13,106 nucleotides of DNA from a virus (taxonomy: Duplodnaviria > Heunggongvirae > Uroviricota > Caudoviricetes): IMG/VR virus record IMGVR_UViG_2737471857_000014, positions 1-13,106 of that record. One strand, written 5' to 3'. The first letter of the stretch is position 1. Each line of letters begins with the position of its first letter. The position numbers were made by a program. Of the stretch, positions 6,001 through 12,000 are shown piece after piece.

Positions 6001-9000
6001 TCAGGCGTAAATGCTCACCGCTTTTGCCTGTAATTTCCGGGTATATCATATTTACGCTCACTCACTTTCAATTTTGTAAATCTTCACGCCCAGCCGCCCA
6101 CCAGGAACGAGCTGACCGCGCACAATATTGATTTCATCAAACTGCTCGTCGTCTATGAGCAGTCCCGCATGTGTCAGTGCATCCAGTGGCGCTTTCAGGA
6201 TATTGTCCAGGTCACGACGACGCTTATCCGGTGGCTCGGCGATAACCTTTATCGCCAGCCTTCCGGGCAGATTTAATTTCAGCCGCTGCTGGCGGACAAT
6301 AAGTGCCACATCACGGCGATAACGCTTACCAGCTTCCGATATAAAATATGTGCTGCCACGGCGTCGCCAGTAAGTATTCACCGTCGGCGGATAAGGCAAA
6401 ACAAACTCTATACGCATCAGTAACCTCTTTTACCCGAGCACGCCGGTTGCAAAGGCGCGATCAAGAAAACGAAAAATTAAATCAATCTGGGAACCATGCT
6501 TTTCTTCGAACGCCTGCGGATCCGCATGAAGCTCGTTGTGATGCTCCCGACACAGCGGCAACGTAAAAATATCGTGGGCCTTTGTTCCCATCCCTCCCTG
6601 ACCGTGACCAATCAGGTGATGGGGATCGTCGGCTGGCTTACCACAACACGCACACGGCTGTGTCTTCACCCAGCGTGTGTATTTCTCATTTACCCAACGG
6701 CGACGTTTAGGTCGCTTCATGAAAGATTCCGGAGACTCCGGATCAACGGCAATGCTGACCACCGTCTTTTCCTGTGGCGAGATTTGTTGCTGGTGGACGT
6801 GAGGCAACGGCGCAAGATTTTTTGTGCGCTGCTTCAGTATGCTGGTGGCGGTCTGCTCTCCCGGTACGATGTCGCTTTCGCGGTAAACCGTGCGGATTTT
6901 TTCCGCACGTAATCCCAGAGAACGACGTAATACTGCCTCCGGTAGCGCGTCCGCCACCTGATTGCAGACCGCCCACCAGGATAATTCAGCCAGCGATAAT
7001 TCCCGTTCCTGTGTACCGCTTATTGCGTGACGTATGACGTCAATCATCCAGGCTGTCAGATTTTGTTGAGCAAGCTGCCCGAGTGATTCGGATGTCTGGT
7101 CGCGCAGCTGGTTGTCGCAGTGCCAGCACAACAACATTGCGCCGGTACCGTAACGATGTATGACGGTTTCACTGTGGTGATAGTCTCCATGAGGCCACTG
7201 GCAGGATTTAACATGACGCAGGAGCCAGTCAGACAGTGCGCCAGCGCCGCCGGCAGCACGAATCACCCGCTCATCGCTGAAAAATGGCAGTAATGATTTA
7301 TCTTCCGCCAGCGGCTGACGAACGGCAGGAACGACTCCGGACGGCAGACCGCGCATGCTTTTCGGTTCCGGCTCCACCAGTACCCGGGGATTATGAAATA
7401 CCTGCATGGATTCACGGCCCGGCTTAAGGACCACCAGCCCGAGTTCCGGCACCGGAACAGGTCGAAGTAATACCCGCACGTTACCTCCAGATTCGTTGCT
7501 GGAATGTGCGGGATGGACGCGGCGGGCGTTCGGAATAAGGGAGCCTGACGTAGATTATCCAGTGACGGTAGTCGAGGCTAAGGGCTTTCTTAAACTCATA
7601 CCCACGTCTGCGGTAGTTATGAATCAGCCATTCGGCCTGTTCTTCAGTGCAGGGATCGTGCTGATACCAGTCATATTTGAATGTGTGAGAACACCGCCCT
7701 TGCCTGCTGGCAGGGGCGGTATCAGAATTGTGATGTTTGGTATTGTGCGCCATCGGTTTTCTCTGCTGGCGCAGCAGGTGCCAGTTGTTCAAGCTGGCGT
7801 GCGGCAATATTGTCTCTGATTTCTGTTGTCGTCAACAGGCAACGTGCTATCATCGAATGGTGTTCTATCCTACTCCGTGAGGTTTACCATGCGTACAACC
7901 CAACAATTCAGCATTACATTAACTAACGAAATGGCTGACATGGTGCGCGCCCGTGTGGCTTCCGGTGCCTATGCTTCAGAAAGCGAGGTCATTCGTGAAG
8001 GGCTTCGCGCACTGAATGAGCGCGATAAAGCAATCGAAGCGTGGTTAACGCATTCAGCCGCCCCCTCTCTTGATTCTATCCGCGAAAACCCAAACAACGG
8101 ACGCTCCATTTCACAGGTTCGCGCCGCGATTCGATCCGGGAAGTAATCTGCATGACATATGAAGTCATCATTACTCCTGAGGCCGAACAACAAATAATCA
8201 ACCTGCACAGGTATATAACGGAGAAAGCAGGGAACGTCATTGCTGACAATTATGCCAATGCGCTTCTTGATTATCTTGATGGGTTTTCAACATTCCCGCA
8301 TCGGGGCAATAAACGCGATGATATTCGCCAGGGGATGCGGGTAACTCATTTCCGCCACAGAACGATTATTGCTTTTGCCGTTGATAGCAGAAAAATCTTT
8401 ATTGTCGGTATCTATCATGGTGGGCAAAGTTATGAAACCGATTTCTTATAAACTTTTACCCACATCATTCCGGTGTTAGAATTAACCGTCCGCCCCCTCT
8501 CTTACTGGCGGATTCGTAGGCTATATAAATCAAAGATCCCGGCTCATGTTTGTGTCGGGATCTTTTTTCGGCGATTTATCCCCAGCGGCAAATCGAATAC
8601 ACCACCAGCGCCACCGCCATCGCAATTCCTACCGTTGTGAATGCTTCAGGCCAGGTCATCGATTCACCTCCTGCTCAATATTTTTAAGGTCATTTTCCGC
8701 ATACAGTATTGCTGTCCTGGCTGCTCGTAACCGGGCTTTGGCGTTTTTCTCTTCACGTTCAAGTTTTGCCACAGCTTCACGAAGAGCATCCCGCTTTGCA
8801 TAGAGTGATTTAATCTCAGACACTATGTTTTCACCGTTTCTCGCACGGTCGAGAACAAGCTCGAACGGATCTAAAGCCAATCCGCATCGGTTACAGGTAA
8901 TCGTACGATTCACTTCTGAAATTGTTGTACGGATATGCTGACAGCATTTTTGCTCGCCGCTTTTTCTGTCGGTTATCACAACGTTGAGGAGTCCTTCCTC

Positions 9001-12000
9001 CTCTGATTTTGGCTGTACGAGGGTGATAACATTGTCGACTTCATTTTTCATCAGTTCACCTCCTGCGGTGGCTCCGGTAGCGGCATCCAGTGAGTTGCCT
9101 GCTCAATACCATTACCCGGCTTAATCGTTGCTTCTCCTCGCCGGAATGTGCTTCCTGTATAGCGTGCGGAGCATATTAGCGGTTCAACCAGAGAGCTATC
9201 GAAATTCACCGAAATAAGCACGTTCTGGTTCTTTTCAGGCATCCGCTCACTACAGCTTATCCAACCATCCGGAATTACCGGCGCTGACGGCGCTGCGTAA
9301 AGCGGTGTTATTTCTGCCCGAAAATCACCTATTTCATGCAGTCGCACCCAGCGTTCGGCTTCTGCTTTGTCAGAATACATAGCGGTGAACGTATTATATT
9401 CATGGTCAATTTGCGTGAAGGTCGCCTTCCACGCCACTGGCTCTGCTTCCAGTGATGCCAGTGCGATACGAAACACATTGGCAAGCAGGCTGTCTGAAGA
9501 TTGGTTATCGTGCGCCGGGTCGCTCAGGAAACCAGTGATGAATGATTTAATCTCCGCGTTTTCTCTGGTAATAGTGGTCATATCAGCTTTCCTTATATGG
9601 GTTGATTTTGTTGTGCAGTGTGTTGAACGACGCCCATACCACGTCGTTATACAATTCAATAACTGGCTCAATTATTTTCCCGATAAACCAGACCAGTAAT
9701 AGCGGGGATATCGGTATCATCAACACGATAAATATAATGAGAAACAAAAATTCTGTCGCTCTACTTTTTCTCGGATATTCTTTTCTGAATAATGTAGTCA
9801 TTTCTTACCGCCCTTTCGGGCGGCCTCCTGACATTAATCATTGTGATAACTCATAGTTTCATTTGCAGCATCAACTGGATCAACATCCCACCAGCAATAA
9901 TTTTGGTCGAGTCCTTCAGGTGTCCACGGCTCTAATTCATTTTTTGCCGCATTCTCGTCACCAGTAATTTTAAAAATCTGCTCAGAAAATTTCCTCACCC
10001 ACTCGTTATATTTTTCCGCATTAATGGTTTTCTGTGTATTTAACATAGATATGCCTCCAGTTAAGGATTTGATTTTATTTACAGTGCTAAATTTAATTAT
10101 TCAGTTCTGGATTTTGTCACCCTGCGTATCCGCGCTTTCACGTTACGCTCAATCTGAATTAGCTTTTCTATATTTTTCCGCCTTTCCTGTTCCTCCTAGC
10201 GCAATAGCCTTACATCATCTGCCAGTCTGGTTTCTCTTTTCGCCACAGAGAGCATCCAGTCAAATGGCTCCACAACTGCACCGCAGATTTTACAGCGGAC
10301 CTGACGCTCTTTTTCGTCAACCCGGACAGAGTCGTGATGGCAATATGGTCTTTCCGATGGCTCATAAAGAAAATTAACCTGATTACGTGGGTCATCCTCT
10401 TTTACCGGAAATAAAACAATATTACTTAACTCATCTTCTGGTTTTATTTCCATGCTCCTCCCCTTTGATGCGAATACCAGCAACACGTAGTACGTGCTCT
10501 AAATCAGCCAGATAAATCCAGCTGCCATTTTCTTTGGGAATCATGACGTGACGTTCATCAGTATTTATCGGATGTCCATATCGAAGTTCATAGCCAGCCG
10601 GTAGCTGGACTTCCCTTGCTTCCAGTTCTGCAATGCGCTTGTCTTTGGCTTCCAGTTCATCAAGAACCTTCTTTATGGCTGGTGAATGTGTCATATAACT
10701 CGCAGCCGGACCAGCAAGCATTATCCTGAGCTGTGCTTTCGCTTTTTCTATTCTCATCTATGCCATCACCTTGTTTCGCAACCAGACACAAACCGGACCA
10801 TCTTCAGTATCATGAATGGAGCCAATAAACCAGCCTTCGCCCTCTGGTCGTTCCGGTTCCCAGGCGGAAATATCGGGGTCATCTGCAACCGGATTTAAAT
10901 AATCTTCATCCATGCTGCAAATAGTCCACTGAAGATTATTTGCCTTCATCCAGGCGTTAAACTCTTCCGTTGAAATATATTCCCGACCGTCACAGAATTT
11001 TTCATATTCTGGATGTGTCCAGCAGCCATATTCATCACGTTCTACTGGTATTTCTCTAATTTCATTCATTTCTGTTCTCCCACGTTTTCAGACTTTCACC
11101 GCAGAACGGGCAAAATGAAACCCGAACTGGTGATTTAGAAAATTCACCGGATCGCAACATCACCAAATCAGGGCCGCGAGTTAAACTCTCATTCCAGATT
11201 TTGTATATCAGCAGACCTTTTCGCGTCGTGTATTCAGCATCATGCTCAAGGGAGTTTGCCAGTGCCGTACACGGTTCTATCTTGTTGCCATAAACCTGGC
11301 ATTTTGATTTACCCACTGGTCGCTTCCTTCACAAAAATAATCCAATGTGTTTTATCGTTCTTACCGGTGCGCTGGCTGATGATTGGTTTCGCGTCGGTTA
11401 GTGCCAATATCTGGCGGACAGGTATTTGCGTTTCATTCCATTTAAAAATCAGAACACCGTGTGGCCACAACACACGAAAGGCTTCTTTAAATCCCTGCCG
11501 CAAATCATCACGCCAGGTATCTTTATTCAGCCGTCCATATTTCTTTCCCATCCAGGCGTTATCACCAACACGCTCAAGATGCGGAGGGTCGAATACAACA
11601 ACCGGAAACGATGCGTCTGCAAATGGTAATGCACGAAAATCTGCTATCAGGTCAGGGCTAATTATCAGGCGTCGTCCATCACATAATGTGTGCTCTTCTT
11701 TTCTGATATCGCTAAATATCGCCCGGTCGTCATTCTTATCGAACCAGAACATACGACTACCACAGGACATATCAAGAATGGTTGCCGATTCACTCACTGC
11801 TTACCTCCTGCAACGCTACCCGGTACGCCTTCTTTATCCACGCTGTACTGCCATATAACTTCGTCTTCATAAAAAACACACCTGCACGGCTCGCCGATAT
11901 CCCCGGACAGGCTAACAGCACTGCATCCACTACACGGTTATGCTTCCGGAACTCCATTACAGTACTGCTGATAACCACCTGTCCCACCGGGCCGTAATCC

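Follow-up and report, generated by a model that had tools for sequence, protein, structure and literature searches.

The window analysed here, a 13,106-nucleotide (nt) stretch of Caudoviricetes DNA (positions 1 to 13,106 of the IMG/VR virus record IMGVR_UViG_2737471857_000014), carries two small genes, termed copy A and copy B below, which sequence and profile comparisons identify as distant, long-diverged relatives within a single phage protein family, PHROG 1621. Copy A is intact and under purifying selection. Copy B is a nonsense-truncated pseudogene of a 118-amino-acid (aa) protein, in which a recent mutation has removed the last 33 residues including a basic helical motif. Both genes sit in the rightward early operon, between the replication gene P and Q. 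Taken as a whole, the best explanation of these observations, to which we would assign a probability of about one half, is that A and B are two diverged PHROG 1621 members, B having been inactivated, of a family that functions as an early accessory factor. The features of the two copies on which the argument rests are the following:

8656..9051, minus strand: copy A, intact, 131 aa, WP_000787530 'hypothetical protein' (open reading frame and phrog_1621 match)
9016..9030, minus strand: A residues 8-12 (VITLV), local form of the N-terminal motif [VI][IV]x[FL]P (column statistics, 78 members)
8863..8943, minus strand: A residues 37-63, predicted CHCC zinc ribbon C37-x-H39 ... C53-x-x-C56 with D61-P62-F63
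8662..8868, minus strand: A residues 62-130, one long helix whose hydrophobic residues follow a 3-4 heptad pattern; predicted coiled coil
8725..8763, minus strand: A residues 97-109 (LEREEKNAKARLR), basic family motif L-[KR]-R-x-E-[RK]-N-A-K-[AS]-R-[LI]-[RK]
10196..10453, minus strand: copy B as now translatable, 85 aa plus stop, comprising the acidic tail, the zinc ribbon and the first 23 helix residues
10097..10453, minus strand: ancestral B frame, 118 codons plus stop (RefSeq: pseudogene with internal stop)
10262..10342, minus strand: B residues 38-64, zinc ribbon C38-H-H40 ... C54-x-x-C57 with E-P-F (E62)
10196..10198, minus strand: premature TAG in B, where four of four aligned intact orthologues have CAG (Gln)
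10124..10162, minus strand: remnant of the B basic motif (LIQIERNVKARIR), downstream of the TAG and untranslated

The open reading frame (ORF) of 131 aa was recovered at the coordinates given in the initial annotation, and lies on the minus strand; the second ORF was also correctly located, on the same strand, but its product is 85 aa plus a stop rather than 86 aa. The motifs quoted for the two proteins, CCQH...CNRCGLALDPFE in A and YCHH...CKICGAVVEPFD in B, are both present, and the shared ligand signature C-x-H ... C-x-x-C followed by [DE]-P-F is found in each (C37, H39, C53, C56 and D61-P-F in A; C38, H40, C54, C57 and E62-P-F in B). BLASTP comparison of A with B recovered a match of E=3e-8 over 82 residues at 20% identity. 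For profile-profile comparison with hhalign, 14 A-type and 15 B-type proteins were each aligned among themselves, and the two alignments matched with a probability of 99.3% and E=5e-20 across 107 columns. There are also 10 invariant and 8 nearly invariant columns, distributed inside and outside the ribbon. Against the phrog_1621 profile A gave E=6.7e-48, with residues 1-130 aligned to profile positions 5-134 of 134, and B gave E=1.7e-38, over profile positions 1-88 of 134 only; both also match PHROGs 8538 and 4865, more weakly than 1621. Judged from these profile matches, the family is PHROG 1621, with 8538 and 4865 as satellite families. The earlier statement that the motif could not be assigned to a named family is right in that no Pfam family reached its cut-off for either protein and an NCBIfam scan gave no meaningful match; it misses that the family is already catalogued as PHROG 1621, function unknown. 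The description of the two proteins as paralogous stands in the sense of common family membership, but not in that of a recent duplication. A and B share only 20-25% identity, whereas A reaches 41-42% with some members of other lineages, and the pair therefore represents two old subfamilies joined by module shuffling. They also belong to different gene modules, with A usually following a DUF551/EaA gene and B an Ea22-like gene.

A profile search of 1.84 billion cluster representatives for further members recovered 1,942 clusters (50% identity) at E<=1e-3, of which 538 reach E<=1e-10; most of the proteins are 100-185 aa long. Conservation was evaluated, in A numbering, on an alignment of 78 diverse members, every one of which matches phrog_1621. 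C37, C53 and C56 are invariant, H39 is retained in 74 members and is a Cys in the remaining four, and there is strong conservation at R49, D61, P62, F63 and A70. The acidic N-terminal segment is variable apart from the short motif [VI][IV]x[FL]P, which is conserved, and between about residues 80 and 122 the hydrophobic residues recur with a regular 3-4 spacing. Within this stretch lies the near-invariant basic motif (L97 in 73 members, E101 in 72, N103 in 73, K105 in 72 and R107 in 75), and heptad phasing puts E101 on an 'a' position and A104 and A111 on 'd' positions. The AlphaFold2 model of A (mean predicted local distance difference test score, pLDDT, 80.7) contains two strands (residues 42-45 and 50-53) and one helix (62-130), while residues 1-14, in the acidic N-terminal segment, have a pLDDT below 50. 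In the model of an intact B orthologue, P0111 (mean pLDDT 72.5), the strands span residues 43-46 and 51-54 and the helix spans 63-116, and the zinc ribbon proposed to be shared by the two proteins is therefore also predicted by modelling, as the same pair of β-hairpins followed by a long helix. Members of the family are thus predicted to possess an acidic and probably disordered N-terminus, a zinc ribbon with the D-P-F motif, and a long heptad helix bearing E-x-N-[AV]-K-A-R-x-R. Ligand conservation, along with the modelled hairpins, predicts that zinc would be bound by the four ligands.

The exact sequence of copy A is present on at least 998 contigs, its ratio of nonsynonymous to synonymous substitution rates (dN/dS) is 0.10-0.25 against 12 close orthologues, as expected under purifying selection, and its helix carries the complete E101-K-N-A-K-A-R-L-R109. 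In copy B the corresponding ERNVKARIR lies 3' of the TAG and is thus present at the DNA level only. DNA alignment of B with four intact orthologues revealed one CAG to TAG change in a gene that is otherwise collinear; reading through this codon yields a 118-aa protein ending in ...LLR*EEQERRKNIEKLIQIERNVKARIRRVTKSRTE, where the intact B orthologues, of 117-132 aa, read LLRQEE and have Gln, or rarely Leu, at the position of the stop. The window's product would retain just 23 residues of the helix seen in the P0111 model. This exact truncated product is confined to 2 contigs, one of them of the same length as the window (13,106 bases), as against at least 92 with intact 118-aa variants. The initial annotation had described the larger protein as adding a coiled-coil tail and the two proteins as differing outside the ribbon. 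Neither statement is confirmed: the B-type tail is homologous to the A tail, each with E-[RK]-N-A-K-A-R-[IL]-R, and B has been cut by an in-frame TAG, so that it is the smaller protein that lost a tail and not the larger one that gained it.

The family is widespread among phages and prophages. A-type genes were found in 66 sequenced phage records, all labelled hypothetical and often beside an EaA/DUF551 gene; these include 933W (L0139/L0140 region), VT2-Sakai and Stx1 phages and phages of Enterobacter, Hafnia, Cronobacter, Providencia and Serratia. Members are likewise frequent in E. coli, Salmonella, Klebsiella and Shigella prophages. The viral neighbourhoods were sampled in IMG/VR, at 80 loci that carry an A-type gene. 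Of these, 44 have a DUF551 homologue within 1.5 kilobases (kb) of that gene, its start being a median 549 nt upstream, and the same pairing is seen in 933W and VT2-Sakai. In the window the TGA stop of the DUF551 gene overlaps the ATG of A by one base (TGATG), and this stop-start overlap suggests translational coupling. Approximately 9 of the 80 loci possess in addition an intact B-type gene 0.5-2.5 kb upstream. In three of the two-copy loci (L037-L039, IMG/VR, about 5.8-6.4 kb) A is split into two overlapping frames by a frameshift and B is intact. Thus, two copies constitute a recurrent minority arrangement, in which either copy can decay in prophages. The three loci, with a frameshifted A and an intact B upstream, mirror the state of the window.

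Three more distant members were located on phage-like contigs, one in a group of small genes that lie upstream of a large gene and of a Mu-type portal gene, another beside recT, and the third between an immunity region and the lysis/terminase genes. A contig scan for the high-GC subgroup recovered one locus, in a Longimicrobiales metagenome-assembled genome (MAG), and the contigs of several other distant members were shorter than 2 kb. In every context examined the family sits among early-region phage genes.

Over positions 8400-10800 the window matches, at 100% identity, the chromosome of E. coli OkiPb01676, isolated from bovine faeces in Okinawa, in which this region belongs to a lambdoid prophage integrated beside ompW. 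On the minus strand the gene order commences with the replication genes, a DnaT-like O analogue and then P (RefSeq annotation), which are followed by the DUF1627 gene, a small DNA-binding protein, a methyltransferase, several small ORFs and an Ea22-like remnant. Next come B, two small genes (one encoding a DUF4014 protein), the DUF551 gene and A. After A lies a ParDE toxin-antitoxin pair in the opposite orientation, beyond it DUF968, RusA and a DUF1133 Q-type protein, and beyond the Q-type gene an AraC-type regulator, three tRNAs, a SubAB-type toxin operon and the lysis genes. It is from this order, P ... B ... A ... Q, with A and B on the minus strand, that the placement of both copies in the rightward early operon follows. 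The assignment of the two genes to a nin region accordingly holds solely by their position between P and Q in this prophage; their homologues in 933W, VT2-Sakai and ArgO145 lie among Ea22/EaA accessory genes. The neighbouring features of the window are:

9051..9581, minus strand: DUF551/EaA-type gene directly upstream of A (RefSeq annotation)
10431..10640, minus strand: Ea22-like gene remnant, RefSeq pseudogene without N-terminus (10431..10757, 108 aa, in the ORF listing)
7826..8451, plus strand: ParD/ParE toxin-antitoxin pair, inserted against the early operon direction, directly after A
11062..11316, minus strand: small ORF, 84 aa, Cys pairs close to either terminus (C-x9-C ... C-P-F-C-G)
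12325..13086, minus strand: DUF1627 protein, 253 aa (RefSeq annotation)
4158..4871, minus strand: AraC-type helix-turn-helix regulator, between the Q-type gene and the tRNA/toxin cluster
1561..3488, minus strand: subtilase-cytotoxin-type AB5 toxin operon, downstream of Q and the three tRNA genes

The Ea22-like remnant overlaps the start of B by 23 nt, and the same 23-nt overlap is found between the Ea22-like gp18 and the B-type gp17 of phage ArgO145. Elsewhere this junction has given rise to natural Ea22::B fusion proteins (P0114 and P0232), suggestive of recombination or of frameshifting at the 'AELEARE' coiled-coil sequence that the two genes share. On the other side of the pair of copies, the ParDE genes lie opposite within the early operon, and the early transcript must therefore read antisense through them to reach DUF968, rusA and Q; the same ParDE pair adjoins the position of A in 9 of the 80 viral loci and in phage ArgO145. 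A promoter and terminator scan of 7400-11400 returned sites in numbers no higher than in shuffled sequence. The 84-aa ORF with Cys pairs can be ruled out as a relative of A and B, having no match to the family hidden Markov model (HMM).

Several other genes of the window deserve mention in their own right. The DUF1627 protein appears to be the counterpart of phi24B Gp05, which has been modelled as a winged helix-turn-helix domain followed by a repeat linker and a coiled coil and described as a 'possible transcription factor' (PMC8614690); as such a DUF1627 protein, Gp05 was rejected as a member of the A/B family. The AraC-type regulator is an unusual passenger for a late-promoter region. The AB5 toxin operon occupies the place that stx has in Stx phage, and comprises two different B-subunit genes, one on either side of the A-subunit gene. 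Its A subunit matches SubA (PDB 2IY9) at E=5.6e-157 and one of the B subunits matches SubB at E ~2e-42; PDB entries 9KYB and 9KYC contain more than one SubB chain type.

The architectural and contextual observations on the family provide some clues regarding its function. Because copies have been pseudogenised both here and in L037-L039, and because the neighbouring genes are mosaic, the protein is likely to be a non-essential early accessory factor. This accessory early protein probably forms a coiled-coil oligomer that presents zinc-ribbon heads. Under the mechanism that we tentatively propose, the long heptad-repeat helices would pair into a coiled coil, which would position the zinc-ribbon heads in the oligomer, and the basic helical motif might contact nucleic acid, or an enzyme acting on nucleic acid, early in infection. 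By this means the protein could modulate replication, recombination or transcription, or else the choice between lysis and lysogeny, in the way that has been proposed for other exo-xis/ea proteins (PMC8614690). The proposal of ribbon heads positioned by a coiled coil, with the basic motif on nucleic acid or a nucleic-acid enzyme, is speculative, and we advance it with considerable reserve.

A number of points weigh against this functional reading. Foldseek searches against PDB and BFVD recovered nothing below E=0.3, and hence no significant structural analogue; sequence searches of PDB with A and with the family profile yielded only coiled-coil noise and no related solved structure. In the databases the members are all named 'hypothetical protein' or 'bacteriophage protein', with no annotated function, and nothing relevant was found in the literature under the family name, the protein accession or the locus tags. 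Zinc binding, the oligomeric state and any ligand are predictions. The likeness of N-A-K-A-R-x-R to arginine-rich RNA-binding peptides is a presumed one. Moreover, the 78-member heptad phasing puts an invariant Glu on a core 'a' position and Ala on 'd' positions, so that the motif could be a helix-packing or partner-binding site instead of a nucleic-acid contact.

This last property is equally compatible with nucleic-acid contact and with a packing or partner interface, and it leads to the main rival explanation, a protein-binding adaptor or inhibitor, which we regard as possible though rather doubtful. Here the [VI][IV]x[FL]P peptide and the ribbon would dock on a conserved host protein, such as a replication, transcription, division or defence component, with the coiled coil supplying avidity and the basic motif serving as an oligomer or partner interface. 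The retention across distant members of a linear motif in a disordered acidic N-terminus is in keeping with such a role, as are the invariant Glu at core 'a' and the small Ala at 'd'. The early-region, non-essential and mosaic character of the genes is likewise typical of host-takeover or anti-defence genes, and neighbouring exo-xis proteins are reported to act via protein partners (PMC8614690). However, there is no known partner, and a spread over hosts as different as those including the Longimicrobiales MAG would need a universally conserved target. PADLOC, in addition, returned no significant match: A gave only weak matches in the coiled-coil region, which amount to noise (LmuB, E ~2e-3; Cas12 TNB-like, ~5e-3), and B gave none. 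A bolder version of the nucleic-acid proposal would make the family an undescribed class of phage early factor, with a ribbon head on a coiled-coil stalk whose E-x-N-A-K-A-R-x-R face grips nucleic acid or a universal host enzyme. In the phages with two copies (about 1 in 9 loci) these might hetero-oligomerise via the motif, and the zinc knuckle might share its ancestry with that of lambda Ea8.5; we consider this combination unlikely.

The remaining alternatives concern the nature of A and B themselves. The 85-aa product of B could be a functional short isoform consisting of the ribbon only, for instance a dominant-negative partner of A: it keeps its start codon, a ribosome-binding site (GGAGAGGAGC before the ATG) and the complete zinc ribbon, and the downstream remnant is still collinear with the intact genes. 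The confinement of the truncated protein to 2 contigs against at least 92 with intact forms, the CAG at that codon in all four aligned orthologues, the presence of the family's most conserved residues in the part that was lost, and the RefSeq call of a pseudogene together render this improbable. Still less weight attaches to the idea that A and B are relatives of lambda Ea8.5, the hybrid homeodomain/zinc-finger protein encoded after ea22. B does come immediately after an Ea22-like gene, just as ea8.5 comes after ea22 in lambda, and the lambda string 'PCRHHEGVYVDE' can be set beside YCHHDSVRVDE of B. However, hhalign gave a probability of only 19% over 15 columns; Ea8.5 matches its own family, PF20735, at E=1.1e-48, whereas A and B show no PF20735 match even at E<=1; and in Ea8.5 the two ligand pairs are separated by about 54 residues, and a long C-terminal helix is absent. 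On the hhalign and PF20735 results this homology was rejected. That the likeness of A and B reflects mere generic CxxC spacing in unrelated small Cys ORFs, the refutation envisaged in the initial annotation, has next to nothing in its favour apart from the pairwise identity of only 20%. The BLASTP match, the hhalign alignment running over 107 columns into the tail, the matches of both proteins to the same PHROG at E<1e-38 and the conserved columns inside and outside the ribbon refute it in favour of homology.

Thus, the reading of A and B as diverged PHROG 1621 members with an early accessory role is retained. PHROG 1621 had already been catalogued, and the result is a modest one at the level of annotation; what is new is the architecture, the set of invariant residues and the recognition of the short form as a pseudogene, which offer a base for a domain definition. 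The family occurs in Shiga-toxin phages, 933W and VT2-Sakai among them, and extends to phage-like contigs of distant hosts that are unrelated to these, and has been without a Pfam model, a structure or an assigned function. If it is true that the protein affects the induction or early development of toxin-converting prophages, it would join the exo-xis/ea accessory proteins, a poorly understood set by which the behaviour of toxin phages is modulated, and there would be some upside should the family prove a new class of early regulator in such phages.

Comparison with known systems helps to delimit the family. Relative to PHROG 1621 itself, A matches over its full length with no difference, and B falls short owing to the premature stop. 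The best similarity in both sequence and fold, albeit below threshold, is to the TFIIB zinc ribbon (PF08271, PDB 1PFT), which is likewise a small two-hairpin zinc ribbon. B scored 23.1 bits against the PF08271 threshold of 29 bits and A had no match; 10 of the 78 relatives match PF08271 at E<=0.01 (best E=1.3e-5), and 1PFT, the TFIIB N-terminal ribbon, was the top Foldseek match in PDB, at a non-significant E=0.35. The ligands of A and B are C-x-H/C-x-x-C, however, not of the C4 or CxxC/CxxH type, and their ribbon is followed by a coiled-coil helix of 55-70 residues where TFIIB has a cyclin-fold core. The basic motif presumably bears some likeness to basic leucine zipper (bZIP) basic regions or N-protein arginine-rich motifs; by inspection it lacks the bZIP spacing N-x2-A-A-x2-[CS]-R, and a bZIP basic region was rejected. 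YfdT, encoded after the DUF551 gene yfdS in the E. coli K-12 prophage CPS-53, was also rejected, being devoid of the Cys/His ligand set and the family motif, and its place after a DUF551 gene is the only trait that it shares with A. The yfdQRST cluster inhibits replication initiation when over-expressed (PMC4776307). By eye only, the N-terminal half of the window's DUF551 protein (9051..9671, ...RIALASLEAEPV...) resembles YfdT (...EIALVSLEVEPD...).

Further comparisons can be made with other small phage proteins. Proteins of the DksA/TraR type (lambda Orf73, PMC8614690) are similarly small phage or plasmid products, each with one zinc site alongside a helix or coiled coil. A and B differ in having the reversed order, with the ribbon before the helix, in their CHCC rather than C4 ligands, and in being without the DxxDxA acidic tip and without a Pfam match. 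Lambda Ea8.5, for a homologue of which a structure is available (PDB 2M7A; PMC8614690), is likewise a small zinc-binding early accessory protein encoded just downstream of an ea22-type gene, and has the local string C-x-H-H-x-x-V-x-V-D-E in common with B, but differs in possessing a helical insert between its ligand pairs and in being without the long helix and the basic motif. Comparison of A and B with the Ea22 domain revealed no sequence homology, PF13935 being matched by the Ea22::B fusions only. In their neighbourhood and coiled-coil region, and in their probable early expression and dispensability, A and B are nevertheless alike to lambda Ea22 and the other exo-xis/ea proteins.

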